From Thermomicrobiales bacterium (GTDB taxonomy: Bacteria; Chloroflexota; Chloroflexia; Thermomicrobiales; UBA6265), in NCBI GenBank assembly GCA_020853615.1, contig JADYYO010000342.1, forward strand, positions 3,172-67,171: DNA of 64,000 nt, in the 5' to 3' direction. Shown here one piece after another: positions 35,882 to 56,171 of the stretch. Position 1 is the first letter of the stretch; every line of letters begins with the position of its first letter. Under the pieces are notes generated by a model. The model was not told the DNA's origin. It saw only the letters and a program-made list of their open reading frames with translations, and did not search any database. Made by a program: the position numbers and the translations under genes.

Positions 35882-35888
35882 GCGGCGC

Positions 35889-36643: not shown

Positions 36644-36653
36644 GGGCTACGTG

Positions 36654-36659: not shown

Positions 36660-36666
36660 GCGGCCC

Positions 36667-39309: not shown

Positions 39310-39312
39310 ACT
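39307..39312 (+). promoter_or_regulatory. TAGACT box, 7 nt upstream of ATG 39320
   Basis: ctGTAGACTGgagcgcATG; the TAG is the stop of the upstream gene. Confidence 0.45.
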
Positions 39313-39319
39313 GGAGCGC

Positions 39320-40200: not shown

Positions 40201-40206
40201 CCGACG

Positions 40207-40216
40207 ATGGTAGCAT
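40207..40216. promoter_or_regulatory. overlapping divergent -10 boxes in a 23-bp intergenic gap
   Basis: Plus strand TAGCAT (40211-40216) + 7 nt + ATG 40224. Minus strand TACCAT (40212-40207) + 6 nt + ATG 40200. Confidence 0.45.
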
Positions 40217-40223
40217 CGGCCCC

Positions 40224-40571: not shown

Positions 40572-40573
40572 CC

Positions 40574-41188
40574 GTGCCGATCCGCGGCCAGCGCGTCGTG
40601 ATCGTCGGGGACAGCCTGTCGGCCGGGCCGCACACGCCCGGCCAGGTGCTGGCCGATCGGCTCGCCGCCGCCGGCGCCGACGTTCGCGTGAACGCGCGCG
40701 TCGGGCGCAGCGCCAACAACTTCTACGGCCGCGAGGACTGGCGGGGCCAGCTGCAGCAGATCGCGGCGACGCACCCCGACGTCGCGATCGTCGTGCTCGG
40801 CACCAACGACATCGGCCTGTCGATGACCGTCGACGCCCAGCGCATGACGCAGCTCCGCGACGCGCTCGCCGGCGCCGGCGCCGACGTCTACGCGTTCGGG
40901 CCGCCGACGTTCCCGCCCGGCACCCGGCTGGTCGCCGGCCAGCCCCAGGTCGTGCGGATGATGCGCGACGTGTTCGGCGGTGATCGCTTCATCGACCTGA
41001 CGCCGCTGACCGCCGACCTGGTGACGAGCCAGCACCGGACCGGAGACCAGGTTCACTTCACCGCCGCCGGCGGCGACGTCGCCGGGCAGCGCATGGCCGA
41101 CGCGTTCCTGCGGGCCTCGAGCGCGCCGGGCGGCGGCTGGCCGGTCGCGGTCGCGCTGCTCGTGGCCGGCTGGTTCCTGCTGCGGTAG
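40574..41188 (+). CDS. SGNH/GDSL hydrolase (esterase) with C-terminal TM anchor
   Basis: GTG start; VVIVGDSLSAG (block I), VLGTNDIG (block III), GDQVHFT (block V DxxH); ends GGWPVAVALLVAGWFLLR. Confidence 0.75.
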   Translation: MPIRGQRVVIVGDSLSAGPHTPGQVLADRLAAAGADVRVNARVGRSANNFYGREDWRGQLQQIAATHPDVAIVVLGTNDIGLSMTVDAQRMTQLRDALAGAGADVYAFGPPTFPPGTRLVAGQPQVVRMMRDVFGGDRFIDLTPLTADLVTSQHRTGDQVHFTAAGGDVAGQRMADAFLRASSAPGGGWPVAVALLVAGWFLLR

Positions 41189-43324: not shown

Positions 43325-43860
43325 CCCTCGTTCGCCGGCGCGGCCGCCGGCGGCGGCAGCTCCGGCGCCATCGACTCGCCGGTCAGCGCGACCGCGATGC
43401 AGTCGAGCCACGAGCCGTCGGTCAGCGCGCCGGCGGCGCGCGCCTCGGTCAGCCGGGTGTGCGCGAGCCGGTAGCCGCGGATCATCTTCTGATGATCGGC
43501 GACGATCGCCTCCTGCACGTAGCGGACGTCCTGCGAGGCCCCGCGGCCGGGGCGTTCGATCGTCAGCACCAGGTGGTTGGGCGCGCCGTCCGTCGATTCC
43601 GCGCCGCCGGCCATCGTCGAACACACGTACGAGGTGCCGTCGTCGAGCAGCATCGGGATCAGCGAGTTGCCGCGCAGCTCGCGCACCCGCTGCAGATCCT
43701 GCTGGTGCTTGGTGTGCTCGTCGGCCCGCGCCGCCTGCATCGCGTTCTTGAACCATGTCTCGAGCATCTCGGGGCCGAGGCCCCGGCGCAGGAACTCCTT
43801 GGCCCACGCGTGGTGGTCGGTGCAGTTGACGGTCCAGTCGGGAGTGGGAGAGGCAGTCAT
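43321..43860 (-). CDS. hypothetical protein (179 aa), last gene of integrase operon
   Basis: Full ORF MTASPTPDWTVNCTDHHAWAKEFLRRGLGPEMLETWFKN... Confidence 0.75.
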   Translation of the reverse strand: MTASPTPDWTVNCTDHHAWAKEFLRRGLGPEMLETWFKNAMQAARADEHTKHQQDLQRVRELRGNSLIPMLLDDGTSYVCSTMAGGAESTDGAPNHLVLTIERPGRGASQDVRYVQEAIVADHQKMIRGYRLAHTRLTEARAAGALTDGSWLDCIAVALTGESMAPELPPPAAAPANEG

Positions 43861-43979
43861 CGTGGCGTCCTTCGGTTGAGAGTCCAGTTTCGGTCACGCG
43901 GGCGTTCCTCGAGCTCGGCCAGCGCGACGGTTCCACAGGTCATCCACACCCTGTGGACAACCGCGATCATCACGTTCAT
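43857..43979 (-). CDS. 40-aa ORF coupled by ATGA overlaps on both sides (excisionase/RDF-sized)
   Basis: MNVMIAVVHRVWMTCGTVALAELEERPRDRNWTLNRRTPR; its ATG overlaps the int stop and its stop overlaps the next ATG. Confidence 0.4.
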   Translation of the reverse strand: MNVMIAVVHRVWMTCGTVALAELEERPRDRNWTLNRRTPR

Positions 43980-44833
43980 CGACGTTCCTCGACCGGCGGC
44001 TCGAACATGGATTCGGCGACCCGGTCGATCGCCTCGCCGCGGACGTGGTCGACGTACTGCATCGCCGTCGACAGGTTGGCCCACTGCATGTGCTCCATCA
44101 GCTTCGGGAGCGCCTCGGCGTCGCCGGCGTGGGCGCGCAGGAACGTCACCGCGTAGGTTCGACGCAGCCGGTGCGGGTGCAGCCCGTCGATCCCACACCG
44201 TCCTCCCAGCCGCTTGAGTTGGCGCTGGACCTTCCGGGCCGCGCTCTGCAGCCGCACCTCCTCGTCCTTGGACGTCGGAACGAGCAGGTGCGCGACGGTA
44301 TCCCAGCCGCGCTCGTGCGCGAGCAGCTCGAGCCACGGCTTGAACGTCTTGAGCACGGTGAACTCGAGGTAGCGCCGCCCCTTCGCAACGAACGAGAGCC
44401 GGCCCGTAACGAGCGCGCTGACGATCTGCGCGCGCTGCATCCTCAGCACGTCGGCGTCGCGGAACCCGCGGTATGCCATCAACCCGATCACCGCGCGCAT
44501 CGGCGGTGTAAGATCCTTCGCCGCCCGCACCTCGAGCATGAGCCGCTGCAGCGGCTGGGCGTCGACCGGCACTTTCTCTTTCGCGCGCCGGGGCGGCGGC
44601 AAGCGGAACTCGCCCAACGCCTCGCGCAGCGCAGGGTCCACGGCGTAGTCCGCCCAGCGGCGGGCGGCCGCCCGCACCAACCGGCGCGTCTTCGGCGCGC
44701 CCCGCTTGAGCCGCTCGATCCAGCCGCCGTCCTCGGTCGCGCGCTTCGCGTGGTGGACGTAGATCGCGACCGTGCCGGGCTGGAGCCCGAACCGCCCCAG
44801 GTAGGTGCGGAAGCCGTCGAGCGTGGTGGCCAT
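43976..44833 (-). CDS. int: tyrosine recombinase / phage integrase
   Basis: C-terminal catalytic motifs GLHPHRLRRTYAVTFL (HxLRHT-type) and LMEHMQWANLSTAMQYV (GH..x..T..Y); start MATTLDGFRTYL (a GTG at 44845 is also possible). Confidence 0.85.
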   Translation of the reverse strand: MATTLDGFRTYLGRFGLQPGTVAIYVHHAKRATEDGGWIERLKRGAPKTRRLVRAAARRWADYAVDPALREALGEFRLPPPRRAKEKVPVDAQPLQRLMLEVRAAKDLTPPMRAVIGLMAYRGFRDADVLRMQRAQIVSALVTGRLSFVAKGRRYLEFTVLKTFKPWLELLAHERGWDTVAHLLVPTSKDEEVRLQSAARKVQRQLKRLGGRCGIDGLHPHRLRRTYAVTFLRAHAGDAEALPKLMEHMQWANLSTAMQYVDHVRGEAIDRVAESMFEPPVEERR

Positions 44834-44845
44834 GTCCGAAAACAC

Positions 44846-45125
44846 CGTGCGCCGGTCTCCATGCGCTGGTCAAGGCGAGATCCCGGTCTTGACGCGGGGC
44901 GCGGACGTTGGCAGGATGACCGGGTAAGGACATCGGCTGGTCGCCATTGTCCCTGTCGCAACGCTGGCCCGGGATGTCCCCCCGGGCCAGCGCCCTTTTC
45001 GGGCCACCGTTGGCAGATCACTGAACACGCGCACCGTGCCGATCTCCCCGGGAGTGGCGACGGTTGCAGAGTTTCGGTCCGAAAAGGTTGCAACCCCGAC
45101 CCGGCTTCCGCAGGATGCGAGGCCG
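44846..45125. promoter_or_regulatory. int-adjacent noncoding region, attP/regulatory candidate
   Basis: IR GTCAAG-N13-CTTGAC (44869-44893). Direct repeats GTTGGCAG (44907, 45009) and GTTGCA (45063, 45087). Palindrome TTTCGGtCCGAAA (45072-45084). Confidence 0.45.
44964..45000 (+). terminator. 10-bp GC stem-loop followed by CGCCCTTTTC
   Basis: CTGGCCCGGG-atgtccc-CCCGGGCCAG then a T4 run. Its orientation does not match any upstream plus-strand gene, so the function is uncertain. Confidence 0.35.
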
Positions 45126-45353
45126 ATGACCGACTTCACGATCGAGACGTGGGTGGGCGGCCACCGTTGTCCGTGCGGCGGGACGGTGGAGATCGGCGTG
45201 CTCGCCGACGACACCCCGGTCCCGCCGGGCTGCCTACCGATCGTCGTTACCCACACTCTCCCGGCCTGCGACAAGTTCACGCAGCTCGAGGCGGCCGACT
45301 TCGTCTCGTACCTGGTGCGGCACCTGACCGCGCCAGCGCCGGTGCCGGCGTGA
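45126..45353 (+). CDS. small Cys-containing protein (75 aa)
   Basis: MTDFTIETWVGGHRCPCGGTVEIGVLADD... Confidence 0.6.
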   Translation: MTDFTIETWVGGHRCPCGGTVEIGVLADDTPVPPGCLPIVVTHTLPACDKFTQLEAADFVSYLVRHLTAPAPVPA

Positions 45354-45568
45354 GCGCGCCCCTGCGCGGCGTGCCGCTGCTCGTGTCGGTGGTGACGTCG
45401 ATGTTTGCGCCACCGCCGCTGCGCGAGGCATTGCTGCAGCGCTCGGCGTGCAAACGCCTGCAGGAGATGGCGGAGGGCAATCCTGCGCTCGTCACGCTCC
45501 TTGGCGGCGTGATCGCCGAGCATCTGGCCGCGCACCACCTCGACGAGATCGGACTGCCCCGATGGTGA
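45350..45568 (+). CDS. hypothetical small protein (72 aa)
   Basis: GTGA overlap; VSAPLRGVPLLVSVVTSMFAPPPLREALLQRS... Confidence 0.5.
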   Translation: MSAPLRGVPLLVSVVTSMFAPPPLREALLQRSACKRLQEMAEGNPALVTLLGGVIAEHLAAHHLDEIGLPRW

Positions 45569-45993
45569 ACATGAACGCGATGATGAGCGCGATGACGGTG
45601 CTTGGGATGGTTGACGGCCCCGAGTTGCTGGTGACGTACGACGGCCACCGCCCGCTCGCGGTGGTCGCGCCGCTTTGCCCGATCACGACCACGACCCGCG
45701 CGCTCTACGACCGCACGCTCTACGACCGCACGCTCGTGGTCGACGCGATCGCGCGCCCCCGGCCGCAGGTGCTGCCCACCGCCGTGCTGATGGCGGCCGC
45801 GTTGGCGTCGACGCCGACCGACATCCTGCCTCGGCGGCAGGGCGGGCTCGATCCGCACCTTGATCGCCGCCACGCGATCGAGGCGGCACGCAAGGCCGAG
45901 GCGCCGGCTCAGCCGAGCGCGCCTGGCGCCGGCGTGGGCGTCAGCGAGGCGCGCCGGCGGCGCCGGGCCGCGAAGCGCAAGAGGGGGTTCTAG
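45565..45993 (+). CDS. hypothetical protein (142 aa) with basic C-terminus
   Basis: GTGA overlap; VNMNAMMSAMTVLGMVDGPELLVTYDG...; ends EARRRRRAAKRKRGF. Confidence 0.55.
   Translation: MNMNAMMSAMTVLGMVDGPELLVTYDGHRPLAVVAPLCPITTTTRALYDRTLYDRTLVVDAIARPRPQVLPTAVLMAAALASTPTDILPRRQGGLDPHLDRRHAIEAARKAEAPAQPSAPGAGVGVSEARRRRRAAKRKRGF
45702..45735 (+). repeat. 15-bp tandem repeat GCTCTACGACCGCAC x2.3 (encodes LYDRT-LYDRT)
   Basis: Read directly at 45702-45735. Confidence 0.85.
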
Positions 45994-46301
45994 TGGAGTC
46001 GCTTGCCCAGCAGCTGCGGGACACCGTCCGCAAGGGCCTCCCCATCCACCAGCGGATCGAGCTCGAGCGCCACCTGGCCGGGCTGTCGGGCTCGCACTGC
46101 GCGCGCGCGATCGGCTGGTCGCACACGCTCTGGCAAGAGCTCGAGGCCGGCCAGCGGGAGCCCCGCCACGAGGAGCTGCCGCGGATCGCCAAGATCCTAG
46201 GGATCAGCGTCCGCCGGCTGACCGGCGGCCACGCCAAGAAGACGCCCGGCTGGAAGCCGATCGGCCGGCCCCGCACCCGCAAGGCGATCACCGCGGCATG
46301 A
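45993..46301 (+). CDS. XRE/Cro-CI-type helix-turn-helix regulator
   Basis: GTG overlapping the TAG stop; LSGSHCARAIGWSHTLWQELEAGQREPRHEELPRIAKILGISVRRL. Confidence 0.7.
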   Translation: MESLAQQLRDTVRKGLPIHQRIELERHLAGLSGSHCARAIGWSHTLWQELEAGQREPRHEELPRIAKILGISVRRLTGGHAKKTPGWKPIGRPRTRKAITAA

Positions 46302-47203
46302 GCGAAGGCAAGTACACCAAGGTGGGCACCGCGCTGTTCGCGTGGGAGCCCTACCTGGCCGTCCGGCGCGAGAGTTCGGATGCCGCGCACCTGTGGCTCG
46401 CGCTCTACGCGTCCGCGCCCGCGAAGCTGCTCATCCCCGGCCTCTGGATGGGCGGCGTGGGCACGATGGCCGACGCGAGCCGCCTGACGTTCCACGAGTG
46501 CGTCCACGCGCTCGACCTGCTGTGCGAGCGCGGTCTGGCCGAGTTCGACCCCAAGACCCAGTTGCTGCGCCTGACGGCCCTGCCCGACAAGAGCGAGGCC
46601 GCGCCCAACCAGGCCTGCCTGCTCGGCTGGTGGAGCCGCCGGCAGGGCCTGCCCGACTGCGGTGTCCGCGAACGCCACCTCGACCTGATGGCGTGGTTGA
46701 CCCTGCCGATCAAGCCCTCGAAGCGCTCCACCGGGCTCGAGATGCAGCGCGCCTGGGACAACACCTGGGGCGCGGCACTGCACGCTCGTGCAGGTCTTTC
46801 CTTCCCAGCTTCTCAGGTTCCGGTTCTGGGTGCCGCAAAACCAAACCAGCTCGACCTGTTGTCCAGCCCACCAAATCGAGACGGTGGGGGGGACCGTCAG
46901 GGGGACGGTCGGGGGGACCGTCCGGAAGAGGTAGAGGTATTGGTAGAGGAGAGAGGGAGAGGTGCAGGAGAGGGAGACCCGGACCACCGGCTCTGGGCGG
47001 CCGTCCTGGCGTCCGCCTCGGAGGGCATCACGGTCCAGAACTTCGACATGTGGCTGGCGCCGCTCCAGTGCCAGCGCGAGGACACCCAGCTCCGGGTGAT
47101 CGCCCCGTCCGAGTTCCACGCGCAGTGGGTGAAGAACAACTACCTGCGCCAGCTGCAAGCCGCCGTCGACCAGCAGGCCCCGGGCCTGCGCATCGCCATC
47201 TGA
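46298..47203 (+). CDS. replication initiator-like protein with DnaA-domain-I-like C-terminus
   Basis: ATGA overlap. C-terminus LWAAVLASASEGITVQNFDMWLAPLQCQREDTQLRVIAPSEFHAQWVKNNYLRQLQAAV matches the DnaA N-terminal domain pattern. Low-GC3 linker carries DNA repeats. Confidence 0.65.
   Translation: MSEGKYTKVGTALFAWEPYLAVRRESSDAAHLWLALYASAPAKLLIPGLWMGGVGTMADASRLTFHECVHALDLLCERGLAEFDPKTQLLRLTALPDKSEAAPNQACLLGWWSRRQGLPDCGVRERHLDLMAWLTLPIKPSKRSTGLEMQRAWDNTWGAALHARAGLSFPASQVPVLGAAKPNQLDLLSSPPNRDGGGDRQGDGRGDRPEEVEVLVEERGRGAGEGDPDHRLWAAVLASASEGITVQNFDMWLAPLQCQREDTQLRVIAPSEFHAQWVKNNYLRQLQAAVDQQAPGLRIAI
46885..46922 (+). repeat. three tandem ~12-bp iteron-like repeats GGGGG(G)ACSGTC, followed by purine-rich lower-GC tract to ~46975
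   Basis: GGGGGGGACCGTC A GGGGGACGGTC GGGGGGACCGTC, then GAAGAGGTAGAGGTATTGGTAGAGGAGAGAGGGAGAGG. Confidence 0.7.
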
Positions 47204-47225: not shown

Positions 47226-48293
47226 ATGAACGAGACCGACCAGCGCCATCCCGTCAACAGCATCGTCGCGACCGACCACGAGATCCACATCCGCCTCGGC
47301 GGGCTGGCGGTGGCGATCCGCCTTGGCGCAGACGCCACCGACACCGCGGTGATCAACGAGGATCTGTACCTGCCGCTCTACAGCGTGGTTTCGCGCGAGA
47401 TCGCGAAGCGCATCAAGCTTGATGGCAAGTGGCCACAGCGCTTCCGTGAGTTCTTCGAGGCCGACCCCGAGTTCATCAGGAGCTTCGGCGGCGCCATCGA
47501 CGCCTCGATCGCCACCGCTGCCGCGAATGCGCCAGCGACCGACGATGAGCTTGCGGCGCTGTTGCGCGGCGAGAGCCTTCCGCGCGGACGGCGCGTGCTG
47601 GTGATGCAGGCGGCGCTGATCCGGCTCGAGTGGCGGCTCGGGGAGCAGTTGCCGCCGCAGATGCGCGAGATCGGGGCGCGCCTCGAGTCGCTGGAGCGCA
47701 ACATCCAGCAGCTCCGGTCGAACGTCGACGCCAACCTGACGACGCGGATCAGCAAGCTCGAGAGCGACATCACGGCGCTCAAGGTGCAGAAGGGCCACCA
47801 AGGCGACGTCAACGCCGAGCACAAAAAGGCCATCTCCGAGCTCTCGGTCGCGGTCGCCGGCCTCGATCGGGCGGCGCCGCCCGAGCTGGCGTCGCTCGTC
47901 GAGCTGGTGACCGGCCAGCAGGACCAGATCGACAAGCTGCAGGCGATGCTCGAGCCGCGCATCCCCGCCGGTGTGGTCGACGGGCGCCCGGTCGCCGGCC
48001 CGGAGATCGGGATCGCGCTCGACGGCGAGATCGCGCGGGCGATCGACCGCCAGGATCTCGCGACCCGCACGCACGTCGACGAGGCGGTCCGCAGGCTGGC
48101 CGCGACGATCCGCCAGTACGTCCGCGACCAGGTCCAGCAGGCGCTGCGCCGCCGGCCCTCGGCGCTCCGCCGCGTCTGGGACGCGCTCGCCGATCGCGGC
48201 GCGCCGTCCGCGCCCGCACCCGCGCAGGAGCCGGCGGCGGTTCCGCCGGCGATCGCCGAGCTGGCCGAGCAGGCGCTCCGGCGGGGGCGGTGA
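47226..48293 (+). CDS. coiled-coil protein (355 aa)
   Basis: Full ORF MNETDQRHPVNSIVATDHEIHIRLGG...; central heptad-like region (LESLERNIQQLRSNVDANLTTRISKLESDITALK). Confidence 0.75.
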   Translation: MNETDQRHPVNSIVATDHEIHIRLGGLAVAIRLGADATDTAVINEDLYLPLYSVVSREIAKRIKLDGKWPQRFREFFEADPEFIRSFGGAIDASIATAAANAPATDDELAALLRGESLPRGRRVLVMQAALIRLEWRLGEQLPPQMREIGARLESLERNIQQLRSNVDANLTTRISKLESDITALKVQKGHQGDVNAEHKKAISELSVAVAGLDRAAPPELASLVELVTGQQDQIDKLQAMLEPRIPAGVVDGRPVAGPEIGIALDGEIARAIDRQDLATRTHVDEAVRRLAATIRQYVRDQVQQALRRRPSALRRVWDALADRGAPSAPAPAQEPAAVPPAIAELAEQALRRGR

Positions 48294-48298
48294 CCCCG

Positions 48299-49888
48299 AT
48301 GGACGCGTTGCCCGACGGGCCGATCGACGTCGAGATCTTCTCGTGCGCCGGCGGCATGGCCGAGGGGTTCCGGCGCGCCGGGATCACGTTCCACATGGCC
48401 GTCGACATGGCCAAGGACCACTGCGACAGCTACGAGCGCAACCTCGGCCATCGGCCGGTGCAGATGGACGCCCGCGACCTGCTGCGGATGGCGCGCCTGG
48501 GCTGGCGCGTGCCCGTGCGGCTGCTCGTCGCCGATCCGCCCTGCACGCCGTGGTCGCGCGCCGGCAAGCGCCAGGGCGTCAGCGACGACCGCGACATGCT
48601 CCGGCAGACCGCCGAGATCATCGGGCTGCTCCGGCCCCGGGCCTACCTGATCGGCAACGTGCCGGGGCTCGAGGACGCCAACAACCTGGCGGTCGTGCAG
48701 GACGTGATCGGCGGGCTCGCGCGGTGGGGATACTGCGTCAGCGACTTCGCCGCGCTCGACGCGGCCGACTACGGCGTGCCCCAGCACCGCGTGCGGCCGT
48801 TCTGGTTCGGGCACCGCCACGGCCCGTGCCTGCGGTGGCCGTTGCCGACGCACGGCGACCCGTGCGACATCAAGGACACGCTGCCCGGCCTGCCGATGCC
48901 CGCGCCGTGGGTGACGTGCGGGCAGGCGCTCGGTCACCTGTCGCCGCGCGAGCTGGGGCGCATGGTCTGGCTGCGGAAGCGGCCGGCGGCGCCGGCGTCG
49001 GCGCTCCGCGCGAGCGTACCCGAGCGCCCGGCCCGGACCGTCTGCGCCTCGAGCTTGGGCGACGGGAACGTGATCAACTACAGCCGCAAGCACGCGCCGT
49101 CCGCCGGCAACCAGCCCGCCAAGACCGTGCGGACCGGCGGCCGAGGCGGCCACCAGGCCGTCGTCCTCGAGAACACCAACGACTCGGACCCGGGCCAGCC
49201 GGCCAAGACGATCGTCGCGGCCCGGCGAGGCACGCAGGCGATGACGCTGCACGACACGCCCAACCACCCGCCCGCGATGGCGTTTGGCGGCCGCGATGGC
49301 GGCGTCGACCGCACGCACCAGCAAAACAAGCCCGCGCGCGCGATCACGACGCAGACCGGCGACCATGGTGTGCTGGTGCTCGCGATCGAGGGCGCCCGGC
49401 GGCGGGTGCCGCAGTCGGAGCGCGTCGTCGCGACCGATGGCCCGGCGACGACGCTCCAGGCGCGGGAGGATCGGCAGGGCACCGGCATGGTGATGGAGTG
49501 GCCGTGGGCGCGGCCGTCGACGGCGATCATGGCCGATCCCCGGCTGGGCCAGCCGGGCCACAAGGACAAGGCCTGGAAGGGCAAGGGCGGCCAGCGCGCG
49601 CGCGCGAAGCAGCGCGGCGTGCTCTTAAGCGAGCGCGCCGGCGCGATCCTGCAGGGGTTCCCCGAGACCTGGGTGTTCTCGGGCGTCACGAAGAAGACGC
49701 GGTGGAGCCAGATCGGCCAAGCGATGCCGCCGCCCCTCGCGCACGCGGTCGCGCAGAGCATCGTCGCGCAGCTTGCCGCCACCGTCGACGACGGGCCGCC
49801 CGAGAACTACGTGGGCTGGGTGCCCCCGGTCGCGCGCACCGAGTCCGAGGCGCGCGAGCAGCTCGTGCTGGTCGGGGGATCGCCATGA
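48299..49888 (+). CDS. dcm: DNA (cytosine-5) methyltransferase-like, long repeat-containing target-recognition region
   Basis: Motif I IFSCAGGMAEGF, IV DPPCTPWSRAG, VI IGNVPGL (ENV Glu replaced by Gly), VIII QHRVRPFWFG, IX/X LQGFPETWVF...GQAMPPPLA. Confidence 0.8.
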   Translation: MDALPDGPIDVEIFSCAGGMAEGFRRAGITFHMAVDMAKDHCDSYERNLGHRPVQMDARDLLRMARLGWRVPVRLLVADPPCTPWSRAGKRQGVSDDRDMLRQTAEIIGLLRPRAYLIGNVPGLEDANNLAVVQDVIGGLARWGYCVSDFAALDAADYGVPQHRVRPFWFGHRHGPCLRWPLPTHGDPCDIKDTLPGLPMPAPWVTCGQALGHLSPRELGRMVWLRKRPAAPASALRASVPERPARTVCASSLGDGNVINYSRKHAPSAGNQPAKTVRTGGRGGHQAVVLENTNDSDPGQPAKTIVAARRGTQAMTLHDTPNHPPAMAFGGRDGGVDRTHQQNKPARAITTQTGDHGVLVLAIEGARRRVPQSERVVATDGPATTLQAREDRQGTGMVMEWPWARPSTAIMADPRLGQPGHKDKAWKGKGGQRARAKQRGVLLSERAGAILQGFPETWVFSGVTKKTRWSQIGQAMPPPLAHAVAQSIVAQLAATVDDGPPENYVGWVPPVARTESEAREQLVLVGGSP

Positions 49889-50790
49889 CCGACCTGCACA
49901 CGTGGGATCCGGCGAAGCTCGCGGCGGTGCCGCTGCTCAAGTGGGTCGGCGGCAAGAGCGCGCTCCTGCCCGAGCTCCGCAAGCGCCTCCCGACGCGGTT
50001 CGGGACGTACTACGAGCCGTTCGCCGGCGGCGCCGCCCTGTTCTTCGCGCTGGCGGCCGCGGTCGTGCGCCGGGATGCTTATCCGTGGAGCCACATCTCG
50101 GATCTGAACCCGCACCTGATCGGCGCGTACCGCCTCGTGCGCGACCATCCGTCGGAGGTGTTGGCCGCACTGGTCGACTACGAACGGCGCCACGCCACCG
50201 TGCGTCCATCGAAGCGATACCCGGCGCCCGCGCTCTACTACCAGGTCCGCGAGATCTGGAATGCCGGGGCGTTCACGACCGATCACCAGCACGCGGCCGC
50301 GTTCCTGTACCTCAACCGGACGTGCTTCAACGGCATCTGGCGGGTCAACAAGGAGGGCAAGTTCAACGTGCCGGCCGGGCGCTACAAGCGGCCGCGGATC
50401 GCGGACGAACGGCGGCTCCGGGTGTGCGCCGCCGCGCTTGCGGGCGCGCGCGTGGCGGTCGAGCGGTGGCAGGACGCGATCGAGGGCATCACCAAGAACG
50501 ATCTGGTCTACTTCGATCCGCCGTACGTGCCGCTGTCCGAGACCGCGAACTTCACGGCGTACACGCAGCAGGGCTTCGGGAAAGACGACCACGCGGAGCT
50601 GGCGGAGGCTGCGCACGCGCTCGTCCGCAAGGGCGTCCACGTGATCATCAGCAACAGCGACACGCCGGCGGTCCGCAAGCTCTACAAGGGCATGCGGATC
50701 AGCCGGGTGAAGATGGCGCGCTCGCTCTCGTGCAAGGGTGACCGGCGCCAGCCCGTGGGGGAGCTGCTGATCGTCGGAGGCCGACGGTGA
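49885..50790 (+). CDS. dam: Dam-family DNA N6-adenine methyltransferase
   Basis: ATGA overlap; LLKWVGGKSALLPEL, YYEPFAGGAALFF, CFNGIWRVN, VYFDPPYVPLS. Confidence 0.85.
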   Translation: MTDLHTWDPAKLAAVPLLKWVGGKSALLPELRKRLPTRFGTYYEPFAGGAALFFALAAAVVRRDAYPWSHISDLNPHLIGAYRLVRDHPSEVLAALVDYERRHATVRPSKRYPAPALYYQVREIWNAGAFTTDHQHAAAFLYLNRTCFNGIWRVNKEGKFNVPAGRYKRPRIADERRLRVCAAALAGARVAVERWQDAIEGITKNDLVYFDPPYVPLSETANFTAYTQQGFGKDDHAELAEAAHALVRKGVHVIISNSDTPAVRKLYKGMRISRVKMARSLSCKGDRRQPVGELLIVGGRR

Positions 50791-51419
50791 TCCTGCGAGC
50801 GGCCGCACGCGACGAGGTGCTCTCACTGTTCGAGCGGCACCATGCCTACGCGGGCATTTCACGCTCGACGACGTACCTGTTTGCTGTGGAGGAACCGTGC
50901 GGCATCGTCGCAGCGTTCGCGTGGCAGCCCCCCCCGCCCGGCGCCGCCAAGAGCGTCTGCGCCGAGGCACCTCATGGCGTGCTGGCCCTGTCCCGCATGG
51001 TCGCGGTGCCAAGGACGGATCGGGCGCTGCGGCACATCTCGAAGCCGCTTCGCCAGCAGATGCGCCGCATGATCGATCGGACGCGATGGCCTGTGCTCGT
51101 GACCTACTCCGACGAGGGACTGGGGCACACGGGCCACGTCTACAAGTGCTCTGGCTGGCAGCCGACGATCCGGAGCCAGCGACCGCAGTTCGTGGATGCT
51201 GATGGCGTTCGCCGGTCAGCTTACGCGAACGGCCGTAGCGGCCACGCTCATCTCCGGTCGATCGGCACGGCCACGATTCAGCGCTGGGAGCACTGGTCGT
51301 GCGAACGCGGTGACGCCGCCCGCTGGATGGAAGCGCATGGGTGGCAGCGCGTGGCCGTGCCCGGCAAGCAATGGCGCTCGGGCAGTCCCGCGTTCACGTG
51401 GGTGCGGAGCCTCGCATGA
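50787..51419 (+). CDS. Mom-like / GNAT-fold DNA-modification protein candidate
   Basis: GTGA overlap; ERHHAYAG, VLALSRMVAVP, VLVTYSDEGLGHTGHVYKCSGWQPT resembles the Mom-family YaD..GH.G.iY.a.gW core. Confidence 0.45.
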   Translation: MILRAAARDEVLSLFERHHAYAGISRSTTYLFAVEEPCGIVAAFAWQPPPPGAAKSVCAEAPHGVLALSRMVAVPRTDRALRHISKPLRQQMRRMIDRTRWPVLVTYSDEGLGHTGHVYKCSGWQPTIRSQRPQFVDADGVRRSAYANGRSGHAHLRSIGTATIQRWEHWSCERGDAARWMEAHGWQRVAVPGKQWRSGSPAFTWVRSLA

Positions 51420-52099
51420 GCGACGCGGTCGACGAACTGGCGATCGCGCGCAAGGCCCGGGCGGCTGCCGACGAGTTGGCGGACCTGCGCGCGCAGAACG
51501 CGCGGCTGGTCGAGCTGCTCGACGTGCTGCGGGCCCAGTCGGCCGGCATCGCCGAGACGCCGCGCCCCCACGCCGAGCAGAAGTGCTACCGCTGCGCCGC
51601 GGTCTACGTCGACAACAAGCGGCGCGTCGTCGAGTGCCAGCGGTGCGGCGCGGAGCTCGACCCGATCGAGGTGCTGCACGAGTTCGCGGTGCGCGAGCGG
51701 CGGTTCCTGGCCAGCAACGATCTGGCCAAGCGCGAGCTCGCCCGGCTGCACGCCGAGATCGAGGCGCTCAAGGGCGACCTGCAGACGGCCCGCCGGCCGC
51801 CCACGCGCGTCGAGTGCCCGCGGGGCTGCGGGAAGTTCGTCGCGGCCAGCGACGTCCACCCGCGGGGCGTGGCGCCGCACGCCTGCTACGCGGCCCGCGC
51901 CAAGCGCCACCTGGTGCCGCGCGTCATCCAGGAGCGCTGGCGCGTCGTCACCGACGCCGGCGGGGGACGGTGGACCGACATGGTGACCGCCACGCGCGCC
52001 GCCGCCGTCACCGCCGGCGCGCGCGTCGAAGAATACCTCGGCCCGATCGGCGACGCGGCCGAGCGCGCGACCGAGCGGCGCGCGCTCGAGCGGCGATGA
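51416..52099 (+). CDS. zinc-ribbon + coiled-coil protein (227 aa)
   Basis: ATGA overlap; MSDAVDELAIARKARAAADEL...CYRCAAVYVDNKRRVVECQRCGAEL. Confidence 0.7.
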   Translation: MSDAVDELAIARKARAAADELADLRAQNARLVELLDVLRAQSAGIAETPRPHAEQKCYRCAAVYVDNKRRVVECQRCGAELDPIEVLHEFAVRERRFLASNDLAKRELARLHAEIEALKGDLQTARRPPTRVECPRGCGKFVAASDVHPRGVAPHACYAARAKRHLVPRVIQERWRVVTDAGGGRWTDMVTATRAAAVTAGARVEEYLGPIGDAAERATERRALERR

Positions 52100-52621
52100 T
52101 CAGGCGGGGTCGGGGGCGTCGGGGCCGCCGACCGCGCCGGGGATGTCCTCGGCCAGCGCGACGTTCGGCTGCGGGTGGCGCGCGCAGAAGTGGTAGGTCT
52201 CGAAGGTCGGGGTCTCGGGCTCGTCGGTCTTCATCAGCAGCACCGAGACCGCGTCCATGACCGCGCCGTCCTCGACGTTGCCCTTCTTGAGCACGTCTCG
52301 GACCACCTGCAGGTCGGCGCGCAGCTTGTCGCACTCGTCATCGGCGTGGCCGATCTTGGTCATCAACTCGTCGACCAACGCGATCGCCCGCTGGCGCTCC
52401 TGCCCGTTGGCCTTGAGCATCTCGGACAGCGAGGCCCAGAGCGGCGCGATCGCCTTGCGGAGCCGGCCGCCGGCGGTGACGCCGTGGACCTCGGGCAGCT
52501 TTGCCGCCCACCACCCCTCCGGCAACTCGGCCCCGCAGAGGGCCGGCGCCTCGACCTGCTGATCGCAGGCCTGCTTGGTGGCGGGGTCGATGCCGTCGCA
52601 GAACAGGAAAGCCTTGTGCAT
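52100..52621 (-). CDS. hypothetical protein (173 aa)
   Basis: Full ORF MHKAFLFCDGIDPATKQACDQQVEAPALCG...; convergent with the upstream gene. Confidence 0.75.
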   Translation of the reverse strand: MHKAFLFCDGIDPATKQACDQQVEAPALCGAELPEGWWAAKLPEVHGVTAGGRLRKAIAPLWASLSEMLKANGQERQRAIALVDELMTKIGHADDECDKLRADLQVVRDVLKKGNVEDGAVMDAVSVLLMKTDEPETPTFETYHFCARHPQPNVALAEDIPGAVGGPDAPDPA

Positions 52622-52726
52622 GCGGGTACGATAAGCCCGCTCGGTTGACGGTCAATGGCGAGGCTGCATATACTTCCGAACACCTACGGGCGCGACCTCC
52701 CTCAGCGCACAAGTCGGAGCCCCAGC
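52622..52726. promoter_or_regulatory. back-to-back divergent promoters sharing a palindromic -35
   Basis: Plus strand TTGACG (52645-52650)-N18-TATACT (52669-52674), then GGAG + 7 nt + ATG 52727. Minus strand TTGACC-N16-TATCGT (52633-52628) + 6 nt + ATG 52621. Core TTGACgGTCAA. Confidence 0.6.
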
Positions 52727-54366: not shown

Positions 54367-55206
54367 ATGACCCTCATGATCCGCTACTTCTGCCTCGTGG
54401 CGCGAGGCGCCGCCGGCGACGCCGCCCACGCCTACCTGGTCGCCCTCGCGCAGACCGGCCGGCCGCTCCGGGCGCAGCCGATCGGCCTGGCCCAGTTCGA
54501 CTGCGAGCCCCGCTGGTGGCAGGTGACCCGGCTGTTCACGCGCCCGATGGGGACGCGCTTCGTCAACGTCGTCTGCGCCCGGCCCGGGCTGGCGCTGGGC
54601 GTGCGCCTGCCGGCGCGCGCGCTCCGCCCGCAGGGCGCGGACGACCCGCTGCGCGAGCTCGAGCGCGCGATCGGTCCGCTGCCCGACGCGCCCGACGACG
54701 TCTACCAGCCCGAGCTGGCGCTGGCCGGGCTCTACACCGTGGGCTGCCGGAACGTCGCGATCACGAGCGCGACGCCGCCGCCCAGCGACGTCGAGCTCGC
54801 CGCGCTCCACCGCTACGACCTGGTGATCGCCACCAGCCCGGACGACCGGGATCGGCTCCGGGATCTGCTGGGTCATCGTCACCCCCGCGTGGTACACGTG
54901 CCACCCGACGCCTCCCTCCTGGGCGCCTTCCTCGACGAACTATGCGGATCATCTACTTCGGCCACTACTCCGCCCTCACCGGCTACGGGCGCGCCTGCCG
55001 CGACTACTGCGCCGCCCTCCACCGCGCCGGCCACGATCTCCGGATCGTCGACTGGCAGTCGATCCCCGGCAACCAGGAGCGCGCCCTCAGCGCTCCGGAG
55101 CCGCGGTTCCGGGCGCTGGATGATCTCCTGGTGCCGTGGCCTCTGGCGCTGGGCGACGACGACGTGGCGATCGTTCACGGCACGCCGAAGCTCCTCGCGG
55201 CGGTGA
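54367..55206 (+). CDS. truncated paralog of the GT1 N-terminal half; ORF tail (after ~54945) is out-of-frame read-through of the GT1 gene
   Basis: MIRYFCLVARGAAGDAAHAYLVALAQTGRPLR parallels MRIIYFGHYSALTGYGRACRDYCAALHRAGHDLR; no stop codon until 55206. Confidence 0.5.
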   Translation: MTLMIRYFCLVARGAAGDAAHAYLVALAQTGRPLRAQPIGLAQFDCEPRWWQVTRLFTRPMGTRFVNVVCARPGLALGVRLPARALRPQGADDPLRELERAIGPLPDAPDDVYQPELALAGLYTVGCRNVAITSATPPPSDVELAALHRYDLVIATSPDDRDRLRDLLGHRHPRVVHVPPDASLLGAFLDELCGSSTSATTPPSPATGAPAATTAPPSTAPATISGSSTGSRSPATRSAPSALRSRGSGRWMISWCRGLWRWATTTWRSFTARRSSSRR

Positions 55207-56171
55207 TGGTGCAGGGCGCGCTGCCGCGCGGTGGCCGCCGCGTCGCGATGACGACGTGGGAGACCGACACGTTCCCCGGCGAGTTCATCGCTCCGCTCGG
55301 CTGCTACGACCGGATCCTCGTGCCGTCGGTGTTCTGCCGCAACGCGATCCTGGCCGCGCGTGATCGTCGCGAGGAGCCGTGGGTCGACGACGTCGTGGCG
55401 GTCGTGCCCCACACCTTCGATCCTGACTGGTGGACGCCGGCGCCGGTGTCGACGTTCCCGCCGGTCAACTTCTACAGCGTCGGCACGTGGAGCGAGCGCA
55501 AGAACCACGAGGCCGTGATCAAGGCGTACCTGCACGCGTTCACGCCTGACGATCCGGTCCACCTGACGATCATCAGCTCGGCGAGCGAGGGCCAGCGCGT
55601 CACGCACGCGTTCCAGTCGGTGCTGGGGCGCAGCGGCCTCGCGCCGGCTCAGATCCCGTCGATCGAGCTCGTCCACGCTCCGCTGGGTGACGCCGAGATG
55701 CGGGAGCTGCTGCAGCGCCAGCACGTCTACGTCAACGCCTCGCGTGGTGAGGGCTGGGGCCTGTCGGTGTTCGAGGCCGCGCTCCTGGGCCACGAGATCC
55801 TGACGCCTAACGAGGCGAGCGGCGAGGCGCAGTTCCTCGCGCGCTACGACAACCAGATGGAGATCGACAGCTGGATGACGCCGTGCTTCGCCGGCCCGGG
55901 CCTGCCGATCGTCCAGAACAACCAGGTCATGGGCGAGAAGACGCTGACCGTGCCCGGCATGAGCGCCCGCGGGATCTGGATCGACATCAACGTTCACGAT
56001 CTGGCCCACACGATGCGCGAGTCGCTCGTCTGTCGACTGTCGAAGTGCGGGCGCCACGCGAACACCCCGCGCGATGTCGCGCTTGCGGCCGAGACCCACG
56101 CGCGCCTGGTCGATCACTTCGGCTACGCGGCCGTGGCGGCGACGTTGACCGAGGCGCTGCAGCCGCTGTAG
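54942..56171 (+). CDS. family-1 (GT-B, GT4-like) glycosyltransferase
   Basis: MRIIYFGHYSALTGYG...; nucleotide-sugar half HVYVNASRGEGWGLSVFEAALLGHEILTP (E-x7-E region). Confidence 0.8.
   Translation: MRIIYFGHYSALTGYGRACRDYCAALHRAGHDLRIVDWQSIPGNQERALSAPEPRFRALDDLLVPWPLALGDDDVAIVHGTPKLLAAVMVQGALPRGGRRVAMTTWETDTFPGEFIAPLGCYDRILVPSVFCRNAILAARDRREEPWVDDVVAVVPHTFDPDWWTPAPVSTFPPVNFYSVGTWSERKNHEAVIKAYLHAFTPDDPVHLTIISSASEGQRVTHAFQSVLGRSGLAPAQIPSIELVHAPLGDAEMRELLQRQHVYVNASRGEGWGLSVFEAALLGHEILTPNEASGEAQFLARYDNQMEIDSWMTPCFAGPGLPIVQNNQVMGEKTLTVPGMSARGIWIDINVHDLAHTMRESLVCRLSKCGRHANTPRDVALAAETHARLVDHFGYAAVAATLTEALQPL

Follow-up and report, generated by a model that had tools for sequence, protein, structure and literature searches.

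Three translationally coupled DNA-modification genes, one of them of the Mom family, in a phage-like element of a Thermomicrobiales bacterium

The stretch of DNA analysed here (64 kb, called the window in the following) comes from a Thermomicrobiales MAG, where it lies on an 80-kb contig, and carries a phage-like element in which three DNA-modification genes lie side by side. They belong to a rightward operon that starts with the gene for an HTH_31 regulator (45993..46301, +; PHROG matches to transcriptional repressors and regulators), followed by the genes for a DnaA_N-domain protein (46298..47203, +) and for a 355-aa protein (47226..48293, +), which is syntenic in relatives and gave no match in Pfam and PHROG searches. 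The domain labels of the regulator and the DnaA_N protein follow the Pfam labels of the syntenic genes in the related loci L002-L006. After a gap of 5 nt, the operon continues with a C5-cytosine-methyltransferase-like gene (48299..49888, +; 529 aa, MCC7024627.1, 'DNA cytosine methyltransferase' in the NCBI annotation), a gene for a Dam-family N6-adenine DNA methyltransferase (49885..50790, +; 301 aa, MCC7024628.1) and a gene for a Mom-family GNAT protein (50787..51419, +; 210 aa, MCC7024629.1, 'hypothetical protein' in the NCBI annotation). A fourth coupled gene (51416..52099, +; MCC7024630.1), syntenic in L002-L006, codes for a 227-aa protein with coiled-coil and CxxC...CxxC features, which is without a Pfam match and matches only families of unknown function in PHROG. 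A convergent gene and a divergent promoter-like pair (52628-52674) are located 3' of the operon, and a tyrosine recombinase gene (phage integrase; 43976..44845, -; phrog_216 and phrog_1 integrase, 3e-10; PF00589) diverges from it on the other side. The coding character of the three modification genes is supported by GC3 values of 0.96 (C5-like), 0.92 (Dam) and 0.81 (Mom-like). A Pfam overview of the window showed phage-type genes for a holin, an M23 peptidase, SLT and 3D/PG-binding domains, an integrase and ParB_N. Because no terminase, portal or capsid genes were recognisable in searches of the window, what justifies the label 'phage' is the presence of genes for lysis, an integrase and regulators, together with relatives that the Mom-like gene has in IMG/VR.

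The stop codon of the C5-like gene overlaps the start of the Dam gene in the sequence ATGA (49885..49888, +), and the Dam stop codon overlaps the start of the Mom-like gene in the sequence GTGA (50787..50790, +). Both overlaps are kept in L002-L006, the first one also in L036. A sequence-only reading of this DNA had already claimed three same-strand genes over positions 48299-51419, their ATGA and GTGA overlaps and a set of peptide motifs, and we confirmed all of these observations by reading the sequence and its translations, while the interpretation attached to them was borne out in part (see below). A further ATGA overlap joins the Mom-like gene to the fourth gene, and the upstream gene ends only 5 nt away from the C5-like start, so that the coupled string extends beyond the trio. 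Located 6-10 nt 5' of the starts are purine-rich stretches that resemble Shine-Dalgarno sequences (GGGGGA, GGAGG), and homologues with matching N-termini back GTG as the start codon of the Mom-like gene. Since at least 11 further same-strand gene pairs in the window share a 4-nt overlap, as judged from crude gene calls, such coupling is usual for this genome and does not set the trio apart. The proposed physical fusion of Dam with the Mom-like protein was not found, as the two are encoded by separate ORFs with the same 4-nt overlap as many other pairs in the window. A hairpin with an 8-bp stem and a 3-nt loop (50770..50788, +) contains the GGAGG Shine-Dalgarno sequence and reaches to the second base of the Mom-like GTG codon; its free energy is -11 kcal/mol (z = -1.9, with 10 of 200 shuffles folding equally well). 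It is kept in L002 and, with one A-to-G change resulting in a G-U pair, in L006 and is absent in L036, but its conservation is confounded because the same bases encode the C-terminus of Dam. At most tentatively, the hairpin may enforce the coupling of the Mom-like gene to Dam translation. We looked for a separate promoter 5' of the Mom-like gene and found none, nor does a com gene accompany it at this locus.

Each of the three proteins is homologous to enzymes that modify DNA bases, with matches far beyond chance (PF00145/TIGR00675, PF02086/TIGR00571 and PF25680/phrog_1384, respectively), as the earlier reading had it. The Dam protein matches PF02086 with 7e-53 and TIGR00571 with 256 bits (cut-off 114.85), and its best matches in the PDB are M.DpnIIA (1.4e-52) and EcoDam (4e-42). 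It shares with the GATC-specific alpha-class D12 enzymes EcoDam, T4 Dam and M.DpnIIA the FxGxG and DPPY motifs (the latter at 50515..50526, +), and the EcoDam GATC-contact residues K9, N120, R124, P134, R137 and Y138 align with K19, N149, R153, P163, R166 and Y167, while EcoDam L122 corresponds to I151. From these retained contacts, the enzyme looks canonical and GATC-specific. It differs from EcoDam in not being an orthologue (177 bits with NF008152 vs. a cut-off of 441 bits) and from the whole group in being phage-borne without a partner endonuclease. The window contains 796 GATC sites (observed/expected 1.08), showing no avoidance. Because the C5-like and Dam proteins align one after the other to a single fused profile, phrog_116 (positions 211-498 and 513-773, in the same order), they represent a recurrent phage pairing. 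We take this fused type to be that of Dmt from phage P1; in contrast to it, we find two ORFs joined by the ATGA overlap instead of one polypeptide, and the C5 part has non-canonical motifs IV, VI and X as well as a repeat array.

The C5-like protein matches PF00145 (1.4e-37), TIGR00675 (105.2 bits, cut-off 100.65) and phrog_116 (1.4e-53), and its best sequence matches in the PDB, M.HaeIII and M.HhaI, cover only motifs I-VIII and IX-X. Motifs I, IV, VIII and X are present as previously claimed, but motifs IV and X are non-canonical and motif VI reads GNV instead of ENV. Alignment to M.HhaI and a Burkholderia phage homologue identified motif IV as ADPPCTPWS with the catalytic Cys82 (48533..48559, +), in which Gly78 and Gln82 of HhaI are changed to Asp and Thr; PPCTPWS recurs in 109 of the 120 top homologues. 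In motif VI (48653..48661, +), Gly119 takes the place of HhaI Glu119 in a HMMER alignment to M.HaeIII, with which a MAFFT alignment including HhaI concurs, and the homologues carry G (109 of 120) or S (2 of 120) at this position. Motif X (49715..49720, +) reads GQ(AMPPP) and not GN(AVP), with Gln474 as the equivalent of HhaI Asn304 (Gln in 111 of 120). The clade signature thus consists of DPPCTPWS, GNV and GQ in place of PCQ, ENV and GN, whereas the nearest homologue from a cultured phage retains the canonical motifs. Conserved features are the catalytic Cys, motif I, both motif VIII arginines, motif IX and QxRxR. Because the Glu of ENV, the Gln of PCQ and the Asn of motif X are missing throughout the clade, canonical methyl transfer is not assured. 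Between motifs VIII and IX lies a variable region of tandem 'xxPA(R/K)T(V/I)...G...hVL' units (48983..49558, +), which resemble the TL-containing core of the HhaI target-recognition domain. The array holds seven units vs. 0.29 expected (none of 5000 shuffles reached 7), and unit number correlates with protein length among the 120 homologues (r = 0.69). The variants of the window, L002 and L006 (529, 577 and 497 aa) differ by insertions or deletions of whole units between conserved flanks, even though the flanking DNA of these phages is 92-97% identical. The Bacillus phages SPR, phi3T and rho11s encode multispecific C5-methyltransferases with several target-recognition domains in tandem. Their long, repeat-built variable region is matched here by an array that gains and loses whole units between relatives, but its units, at about 22-45 aa, are shorter and predicted by AlphaFold to be unstructured, and the catalytic motifs differ. 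Because AlphaFold leaves the array unfolded (pLDDT < 50 at residues 249-256, 262-374 and 380-435), its reading as a target-recognition region is based on sequence resemblance and indel behaviour.

Judging from profile matches and a structural model, the third product is a Mom-family GNAT and not the unrelated acetyltransferase considered as an alternative beforehand. It passes the cut-off of PF25680 'Mom' (1.1e-8; 35.4 bits vs. 27.1) and matches phrog_1384 'Mom-like DNA modification protein' (4.6e-7). The top Foldseek match of its AF2 model (pLDDT 91.5) and nearest solved fold is Mom of phage Mu (8BV8; E 1e-8, TM 0.61-0.64), ordinary GNATs rank below it (E >= 3e-5), and the beta4-alpha3 loop shows no Gly-rich acyl-CoA P-loop. 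With 851 homologues at about 60% identity and PF25680 present in 118 of the 120 listed, the protein belongs to a large, uncharacterised metagenomic clade, which aligns to the Mu-Mom clade with an E of 2e-4 and only about 19% identity (hhalign). Mu Mom is a tRNA(Gly)-dependent adenine-N6 glycyltransferase producing N6-carbamoylmethyl-adenine, whose mechanism and key residues have been described (PMC13219725). Both proteins are phage-borne single-gene modules (210 vs. 241 aa in Mu) and share the LxRM arginine, D149-E150 and GxxG: the clade-invariant residues H19, R70, D109, G113, G116 and Y119 align to Mu H58, R111, D149, G153, G156 and Y159, and the near-invariant P75 to Mu P119. The loss of R111 (numbered R101 in PMC7261163) kills Mu Mom most completely (PMC7261163; bioRxiv 10.1101/2023.03.24.534169). 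In contrast, the position of Mu R151 is occupied by Gly in 96% of the clade, no Ser aligns with S124 (the positions there are A80/L81 or R79), and about 14 residues including W181, i.e. half of the HTH-like insertion, are missing. In Mu Mom, an R151A exchange inactivates the enzyme, and removing the HTH-like insertion abolishes activity (PMC13219725), so the chemistry of Mu Mom cannot be assumed for this clade. The clade has its own beta-rich C-terminal extension of about 25 residues and further invariant residues without Mu counterparts (C58, E60, R79, H83, S85, H114, C121, R142, S144, Y146 and C172). Homologues are found within replication modules of phages, where DnaB, SNF2 helicases, PolA and Pol III alpha are their neighbours, and some are fused to N-terminal HTH arrays; both findings fit a DNA substrate.

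As phage gene islands go, the three-gene arrangement is ordinary, but two of the enzymes are without residues needed by their studied relatives. We consider it reasonably probable, as a joint statement, that three independent enzymes acting after replication form a DNA-modification island here, located at the distal end of a temperate phage-like element's rightward early operon. The enzymes would be co-produced from a single mRNA via the stop/start overlaps. The C5-like enzyme would probably methylate cytosine at one or several short, fast-changing sites, with the tandem units acting as a target-recognition region gained or lost unit by unit, and Dam would methylate the roughly 800 GATC sites of the window. 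By analogy to Mu Mom, the Mom-like protein would flip an adenine out of the double helix and load an activated acyl group onto its N6, with glycine from Gly-tRNA(Gly) as the most likely donor. Three marks on different bases or sites would jointly blunt several restriction systems, and such a combined role, most likely in hiding the DNA from restriction enzymes, is the most economical reading. Of the layered modification postulated earlier, the presence of three enzyme families in one island stands, and a functional Dam-Mom link is not supported.

The chemistry of two of the enzymes may deviate from this scheme. It is possible, if on balance doubtful, that the Mom-like clade acylates DNA or another nucleic acid in a manner other than Mu Mom, using a different donor, base or position or leaving a product without the rearrangement to ncm6A, in which case the DNA of the element would carry a modification so far undescribed. 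This would agree with the near-invariant Gly in place of the essential R151, the S124 column without Ser, the halved insertion, the added C-terminal extension, the eleven clade-specific invariant residues, the weak match to Mu Mom (only 8 bits over the Pfam cut-off) and the fact that Mom substrates are not predictable from structure (PMC13219725). Yet the retained H58, R111, D149 and Y159 make up most of the mapped Mu active site, the invariant S85, which caps the predicted alpha3 helix 4-5 residues off the S124 column, could substitute for the serine, and the invariant H114 aligns to Mu R154, close to the missing R151. Moreover, randomly picked metagenomic Mom homologues, not placed relative to this clade, were reported to be active in an in vivo assay (Silva et al., PMC13219725). 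That the C5-like protein is no conventional 5mC methyltransferase, but transfers another group, acts on another substrate or is catalytically weak, seems unlikely to us, even with three pocket residues altered throughout the clade and a TIGR00675 score barely above the cut-off. The altered positions correspond to HhaI Q82 and N304, which line the methyl-transfer pocket, and to E119, the general acid in cytosine activation. In CmoX, which carries SPPC, an exchange of the motif X Asn for Arg switches the cofactor to carboxy-SAM, resulting in carboxymethyl transfer (PMC12783734), but this signature Arg is absent here, and Pfam searches of the window found no gene for CmoA or other cofactor synthesis. 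The retained catalytic Cys, motifs I and IX and motif VIII arginines as well as the broad conservation of the clade favour an active enzyme, in which a conserved acid (D79 in ADPPC or the (E/D)D after GNVPGL) could stand in for the Glu.

Instead of countering restriction, the methyltransferases might work for the element itself, for example in the timing of replication, the recognition of packaging sites or the regulation of genes, an option we regard as quite improbable. The genes do lie in an early replication operon near that for the DnaA_N-domain protein, GATC is frequent, and Dam methylation controls pac cleavage in phage P1; against this, three modification chemistries in one block, the fast turnover of the C5 recognition region and gene mobility between related elements are hallmarks of an arms race, and the sole known role of Mom is restriction evasion (PMC13219725). 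Least credible of all is a dependent pathway, in which the Mom-like enzyme relies on Dam or C5 methylation for its substrate or a signal, or on Dam for control of its expression as in Mu. Tight adjacency, translational coupling and a gene order kept in close relatives would suit it, as would the precedent of Mu, where transcription from Pmom is controlled by C and Com as well as by host Dam and OxyR (PMC3378877). We find no counterpart of this Mu-type dependence, invoked by the sequence-only reading, at the present locus: the Mom-like gene stands at the end of an early operon under translational coupling, with neither com nor a C-, Dam- and OxyR-controlled late promoter of its own on which Dam could act. 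A functional link is not supported either. The C5/Dam/Mom-like block is kept only in the close relatives L002-L006 and L036, in the last of which a PAPS-reductase-like gene separates Dam from the Mom-like gene; in L037/L038, a 70%-identical Mom-like gene stands alone beside an integrase with no methyltransferase nearby, and tblastn detected no Dam within 8 kb of the Mom-like gene in 27 more distant loci. Among 117 ORFs neighbouring Mom-like homologues, a Pfam scan showed N6_N4_Mtase in three and PF00145 in one, and the 25 families listed of 58 did not include MethyltransfD12. C5-clade members also occur without Dam or Mom, Mu Mom alone is enough for modification (PMC13219725), and because Dam and Mom would share the adenine N6, methylation would be expected to compete with acylation at the same site and not to prepare it. 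With no fusion, common overlaps, no Mu-type control and Dam missing at the 27 loci, the trio is better described as a lineage-specific island of independent enzymes than as a pathway. In the Mu-like prophages FluMu and Pnme1, non-specific adenine methyltransferases occupy the mom position, which illustrates that adenine methylation can be exchanged for Mom-type modification as anti-restriction cargo of phages (PMC3299994); while the methyltransferase replaces mom in these prophages, a Dam that looks GATC-specific coexists with the Mom-like gene here.

The C5-cytosine-methyltransferase-like gene (C5-like; 48299-49888, plus strand, 529 amino acids), the gene for a Dam-family N6-adenine methyltransferase (Dam; 49885-50790, plus strand, 301 amino acids) and the Mom-like gene (50787-51419, plus strand, 210 amino acids) were found exactly at the positions and on the strand given in the sequence-only reading. 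They correspond to the NCBI entries MCC7024627 ('cytosine methyltransferase'), MCC7024628 ('Dam family methyltransferase') and MCC7024629 ('hypothetical'). By reading the junctions directly, we confirmed the ATGA overlap of C5-like and Dam at 49885 (...GGGGGATCGCC-ATGA-CC) and the GTGA overlap of Dam and Mom-like at 50787 (...GGAGGCCGACG-GTGA-TC), each of them preceded by a purine-rich ribosome-binding stretch. The coupled string exceeds these three genes, as a fourth gene (51416-52099; MCC7024630, 'hypothetical') starts in an ATGA overlap with the Mom-like gene and 5 nt separate the end of the upstream gene (47226-48293) from the C5-like start. At least 11 further same-strand 4-nt overlaps were counted within the window from crude GC3-based gene calls. 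The stop/start coupling of the trio is real, yet it represents the normal style of this genome, and the description of Dam and Mom-like as a physically fused pair was not borne out: the Mom-like start sits inside the Dam stop, as in many other overlaps of the window. The unit ends at a gene of convergent orientation and, at 52628-52674, a divergent pair of promoter-like sequences, which marks the boundary of the modification operon. This pair consists of back-to-back sigma-70-like matches (10/12 and 9/12 positions) between the minus-strand gene at 52100-52621 and the next plus-strand gene; in the scanned 11-kb region, chance would account for only 0.2 such matches.

The G+C content of the window is 70-75% along its whole length, and the GC3 values of C5-like, Dam and Mom-like are 0.96, 0.92 and 0.81, respectively, compared to 0.93-0.97 for the neighbouring genes. 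The Mom-like gene (50787-51419) lies below all its own neighbours in GC3 (0.92-0.97), and it was missed by a composition-based gene caller. As a family-wide trait, low GC3 is a weak trend, being lower in 14 of 22 other loci (Wilcoxon p = 0.03, with crude neighbour ORFs); recent transfer or deliberately poor codons for a toxic enzyme are possible reasons for the low value. The Mom-like gene's Shine-Dalgarno sequence and GTG start both lie in an 8-bp hairpin at 50770-50788, which would tie translation of the gene to ribosomes finishing Dam. The hairpin only marginally beats shuffled sequence (z = -1.9), with a conservation that is confounded by coding, and the 70-nt junction regions contained no more structure than shuffled versions.

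The Mom-like protein was assigned by profile and fold comparisons. It scored 35.4 bits against the PF25680 'Mom' profile (gathering cut-off 27.1; E 1.1e-8), with residues 9-142 matching profile positions 10-143 of 202, and it also matched phrog_1384, 'Mom-like DNA modification protein'. Using an AF2 model based on 28 homologues (pLDDT 91.5), a Foldseek search against the PDB returned 8bv8_B first (E 1.2e-8) and 8bv8_A next (E 2.6e-7), with TM values of 0.60-0.64. This entry is the crystal structure of the S124A variant of phage Mu Mom, and the GNATs ranked after it showed E values of 3e-5 or higher and TMq values of 0.52 or lower. Because 8BV8 ranks ahead of the generic GNATs and the PF25680 cut-off is passed, the third protein belongs to the Mom family, as suggested from the sequence alone, and is not an unrelated acetyltransferase. 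PDB sequence searches with either the Mom-like protein alone or a profile of its clade gave nothing meaningful, and Mu Mom was recovered by the fold search only. The glycine-rich CoA-binding loop is absent from the beta4-alpha3 loop of the protein (VPRTDRALRH). The profile match formally places the protein in the Mom family, and it is most likely a DNA-directed acyltransferase.

We found 851 relatives of the Mom-like protein at about 55-70% identity, nearly all of 205-240 amino acids. Among the matches listed, PF25680 was pre-annotated on 118 of 120, all sources were metagenome or MAG assemblies, and no name was informative. Clustered at 90% identity, the clade amounts to at least 850 clusters; when 1.84 billion representatives of 50%-identity clusters were searched with its profile, 416 clusters matched at E <= 1e-3, 56 of them at E <= 1e-30. 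A tblastn search of phage records with the Mom-like protein returned distant matches only (25-28% identity, in Listeria and Ralstonia phages), and the collection of species-representative genomes contained only three related loci, all from MAGs. Some clade members among the profile-search matches P0372, P0374 and P0442 have several HTH domains arrayed at the N-terminus, an arrangement that fits with a DNA substrate, and one of them also has a LAGLIDADG-like domain; in one ORF of this set, a C5 methyltransferase domain is attached to a Mom-like N-terminal fragment. Apparent Mom fusions in four of the distant Mom-like loci (L013, L017, L019 and L027) turned out to be products of crude ORF calling, with neighbouring HNH or Pol III alpha domains or nothing. 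In another distant locus (L033, 8494-12000), a large-terminase gene beside the Mom-like gene is interrupted by intein/homing-endonuclease domains (Hint, LAGLIDADG).

To relate the protein to its prototype, the clades of Mu Mom and of the window protein were aligned by profile comparison with hhalign (E 2e-4), and an independent joint MAFFT alignment agreed in the core. Mu residues H58, R111, P119 and D149-E150 correspond to H19, R70, P75 and D109-E110 of the Mom-like protein, and G153, G156 and Y159 to G113, G116 and Y119. In the 28-sequence clade alignment, H19, R70, D109, G113, G116 and Y119 are 100% conserved, and P75 (93%) and E110 (96%) nearly so. R111 of Mu Mom is catalytic, and its loss abolishes activity (PMC13219725, PMC7261163). 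Mu R151, the exchange of which to Ala leaves no detectable activity (PMC13219725), aligns to G111, a position with Gly in 96% of the clade and anchored by the matches of D149-E150 and G153. Mu Ser124 is located at the start of alpha3, and the S124A variant is inactive or much reduced in activity (PMC13219725); in both alignments, it falls opposite A80 or L81, beside the invariant R79, and no Ser is aligned. An invariant Ser85 opens the predicted alpha3 helix (85-95) of the AF2 model, 4-5 residues from the S124 column. The HTH-like insertion of Mu Mom (residues 175-209) is needed, as its deletion kills activity (PMC13219725), whereas about 14 of its residues (Mu 177-190, including W181) are deleted in the Mom-like clade according to the joint alignment, and residues 137-156 of the AF2 model show low pLDDT and no helices. 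The clade contains invariant Cys, His and Arg residues of its own and a C-terminal extension. Mu Mom produces N6-carbamoylmethyl-adenine (ncm6A) with Gly-tRNA(Gly) on adenine N6 of double-stranded DNA; this tRNA-dependent mechanism was published in 2026, and the authors urge the exploration of Mom-like GNATs (PMC13219725). In the study of Silva et al. on the mechanism of Mu Mom, the homologues 'Homolog A/B' were active. The core arginine, H58, D149 and Y159 are common to Mu Mom and the Mom-like protein, whereas the clade lacks R151 and half of the HTH-like insertion and has no Ser aligned to S124, and it therefore offers a natural test of the determinants of donor and product.

The Dam protein matched TIGR00571 'Dam family' with 256 bits (cut-off 114.85) and PF02086 with 180 bits (7e-53), and its translation contains the FxGxG/DPPY motifs as EPFAGGAA and FDPPYV. 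Among proteins of solved structure, its closest sequence matches are M.DpnIIA (1.4e-52) and E. coli Dam (4e-42). Residues K9, N120, L122, R124, P134, R137 and Y138 of E. coli Dam, which we take from its DNA-bound structures to be the GATC contacts, align to K19, N149, I151, R153, P163, R166 and Y167, the only change being the conservative replacement of L122 by I151. Because these contact residues are kept, the enzyme is likely specific for GATC. The window contains 796 GATC sites at an observed/expected ratio of 1.08, indicating that GATC is not avoided. The enzyme shares the contact residues with E. coli Dam but is not its orthologue, as it reached only 177 bits against the NF008152 equivalog (cut-off 441). 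The C5-like and Dam products match consecutive stretches of phrog_116 (211-498, then 513-773), so the C5-then-Dam pairing also occurs in other phages, there as a single fused protein.

The C5-like protein is the least ordinary of the trio. It matched PF00145 with 130 bits (cut-off 22; 1.4e-37) and TIGR00675 only marginally (105.2 bits, cut-off 100.65). Motif I (FSCAGG), the PPC containing the Pro-Cys nucleophile and motif VIII (QHRVR) are conserved through the clade, and motif IX is kept. Motif IV reads ADPPCTPWS in place of GxPCQxFS, motif VI GNV in place of ENV, and motif X GQAMPP in place of GNAVP. Among the 120 closest database relatives, PPCT occurs in 109 and GQ in 111, and the motif VI position is G in 109 and S in 2, while the search pattern was unmatched in the other 9. 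The altered positions align with Q82, E119 and N304 of M.HhaI, the canonical C5 reference (HhaI), where they line the methyl-transfer pocket and supply the acid activating the cytosine. The canonical motifs are present in the nearest cultured-phage homologue, that of Burkholderia phage vB_SR4 (35% identity), and a literature search for C5 enzymes without ENV gave nothing relevant. In CmoX, a C5-carboxymethyltransferase using carboxy-SAM, the position equivalent to HhaI N304 decides on the cofactor, and the type is marked by an Arg at this position, an SPPC motif and a linked CmoA gene (PMC12783734). The same Asn position is altered in both, but the C5-like clade carries Gln instead of Arg there and DPPC instead of SPPC, and the Pfam search of the window gave no CmoA-like gene; the protein was therefore rejected as a CmoX-type enzyme.

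Between motifs VIII and IX, the C5-like protein contains seven units of the type 'xxPA(R/K)T(V/I)...G...hVL', compared to 0.29 expected from shuffling; a count of seven was not reached in any of 5000 shuffled sequences. They bear a resemblance to two elements found in the recognition domain of HhaI, 'TPKTVRLG...GGQG' and 'TL'. Their number scales with protein length across the homologues (r = 0.69), averaging about 3 to 7 by length class and reaching up to 9 in single cases, and the 529-, 577- and 497-amino acid versions differ by clean indels of whole units in proteins otherwise 89-94% identical. Multispecific phage C5-methyltransferases carry several independent target-recognition domains in tandem, each conferring one specificity. 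The gain and loss of whole units recalls the modular recognition domains of the multispecific Bacillus-phage enzymes, and we regard the units as putative target-recognition modules, but AlphaFold leaves the array unfolded (residues 249-435 essentially unstructured with pLDDT < 50).

In phage Mu, Dam and Mom are linked through regulation: Pmom responds to methylation by host Dam and to OxyR, the activator C and the translational activator Com take part as well, and the reason for this control is that Mom is toxic (PMC3378877). None of this architecture of com and a C/Dam/OxyR-dependent late promoter was seen around the Mom-like gene, which has no separate upstream ORF or promoter and belongs to an early operon, its start lying in the Dam stop. 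The gene order of the window (integrase, small ORFs, HTH_31 regulator, DnaA_N-domain protein, unknown protein, C5, Dam, Mom-like, unknown protein) recurs, with every 4-nt overlap retained, in five metagenomic contigs, four of them near-identical and one at about 83% Mom identity. A Mom-like gene of 70% identity stands alone in a related element (L037/L038), between a PolB-exonuclease-like gene and an integrase, and in L036 a 65%-identical one is split from Dam by a PAPS-reductase-like gene. Around 27 more distant Mom-like copies (24 IMG/VR and 3 MAG loci), no Dam was detected by tblastn at distances up to 8 kb, and just 3 of the fetched loci had a C5 enzyme. A Pfam scan of 117 ORFs neighbouring distant Mom-like genes recorded replication genes (DnaB, SNF2 helicases, PolA and Pol III alpha), the only methylases among the families listed being three N6_N4 and one C5 enzyme; neither search gave a conserved Dam or C5 partner. 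C5-clade genes, too, are found in places that have neither Dam nor Mom. The Mu-style dependence on Dam proposed earlier thus found no support, either in promoter architecture or in the neighbourhoods of distant Mom-like genes. Based on these lone, separated and Dam-less copies, the trio is a lineage-specific collection of independently mobile modification genes. The order and overlaps kept in the close relatives could be read as a true dependent pathway, but Mom-like genes without adjacent Dam and C5-clade genes without Dam or Mom speak against it, and we consider it extremely unlikely. The PAPS-reductase-family (PF01507) gene in L036 (6045-7004, between Dam and Mom-like) has a counterpart in another locus, L040 (6854-8110), directly after a GNV-clade C5 gene and with a QueD/PTPS gene of the 7-deazaguanine pathway nearby; such genes are recurrent extra cargo of the same modification hot-spot.

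Layered anti-restriction modification is the best candidate explanation of the observed gene structure, coupling, homology, fold, residue conservation and limits of synteny. For the activities, specificities, acyl donor and biological purpose, we infer that a single early transcript would yield near-stoichiometric amounts of three enzymes acting after replication and on different targets. The C5 enzyme would modify cytosines with a fast-changing repertoire of sites, Dam would methylate adenine at GATC, and the Mom-type enzyme would flip out adenine and acylate its N6 from an activated ester, the donor most likely being Gly-tRNA(Gly). The combined marks would protect the element DNA against several restriction systems, and such a co-made modification island of three enzymes shielding the element DNA appears moderately probable. 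The rival readings partly overlap and are not all mutually exclusive. A chemistry of the Mom-like clade other than that of Mu Mom is favoured by the lack of R151, of an aligned S124 and of half of the HTH-like insertion and by the clade's own invariant Cys, His and Arg residues, whereas the shared core points back to Mu Mom; we regard it as conceivable, if rather unlikely. A non-canonical C5-like enzyme, suggested by the altered cofactor/target pocket positions and the missing ENV glutamate in a protein that keeps its nucleophile motif, seems clearly improbable. A mainly housekeeping role of the methylases is highly doubtful.

Phage multi-enzyme modification islands are already well known, as is each of the three families. 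What makes the trio a novel variant is that two of its three enzymes come from large clades, uncharacterised so far, without residues held to be essential in the prototypes, and its value lies in these two divergent enzymes and not in the arrangement. We tentatively propose, while judging it unlikely on balance, that at least one of them installs a previously undescribed DNA modification. The Mom-like clade could transfer an aminoacyl or acyl group different from that of Mu Mom or act at a different position, and the C5-like 'DPPC/GNV/GQ' clade could use an altered mechanism or add a non-methyl group, with a specificity reprogrammed by gain and loss of tandem units. The latter clade challenges the indispensability of the ENV glutamate, and its 529-, 577- and 497-residue versions form a natural series of recognition arrays in an almost constant background, which is informative on how specificity is built and changed. 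If both enzymes produced ordinary 5mC and ncm6A, the trio would simply be another multi-layered anti-restriction cassette.

Pfam matches across the window included a holin, M23 peptidase, SLT, 3D/PG-binding domains, an integrase, ParB_N and a phage zinc-finger domain, which points to a temperate phage-like element. Among the 87 ORFs of the window, Pfam recognised no terminase, portal or capsid, and none of the ten largest ORFs (246-880 amino acids), which lie at 1-21000 on the minus strand and 24000-41000 on the plus strand, had a PHROG match at 1e-5, leaving no structural genes; the particle genes, if the element is a virus, are beyond the current reach of profiles. The window contains neither tRNA genes nor terminal repeats, and the only blastn match of the 3.1-kb trio region among 50,697 phage records was a trivial one of 58 nt in Dam. 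Flanking DNA is 92-97% identical between the window element and four of its close relatives (L002-L005). In L002, a segment of about 1.9 kb with the tyrosine recombinase (2266-4232) is inverted relative to the window (43437-45356) and L003, within collinear flanks of 95-97% identity and with no convincing flanking inverted repeats; it may be a truly invertible or reshuffled segment or an assembly artefact.

A 409-amino acid protein encoded 3.5 kb downstream of the Mom-like gene (54942-56171, plus strand) matches phrog_2170 'glycosyltransferase' (9e-16) and, weakly and below threshold, GT4 families including PF20706 'GT4 in conflict systems'. The gene is syntenic in three of the close relatives (L002, L004 and L006), no TET/JBP or hydroxymethylase gene was seen near it, and its product could add sugars to DNA, virion proteins or host surface structures. 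Several palindromes of the window fall below Markov expectation, namely CTAG (19 vs. 77 expected), GTAC (122 vs. 179), ACCGGT (1 vs. 13.4) and GTGCAC (0 vs. 8.5), while CCGG and GATC are not depleted. This depletion may reflect restriction avoidance at sites that the encoded enzymes leave unprotected.
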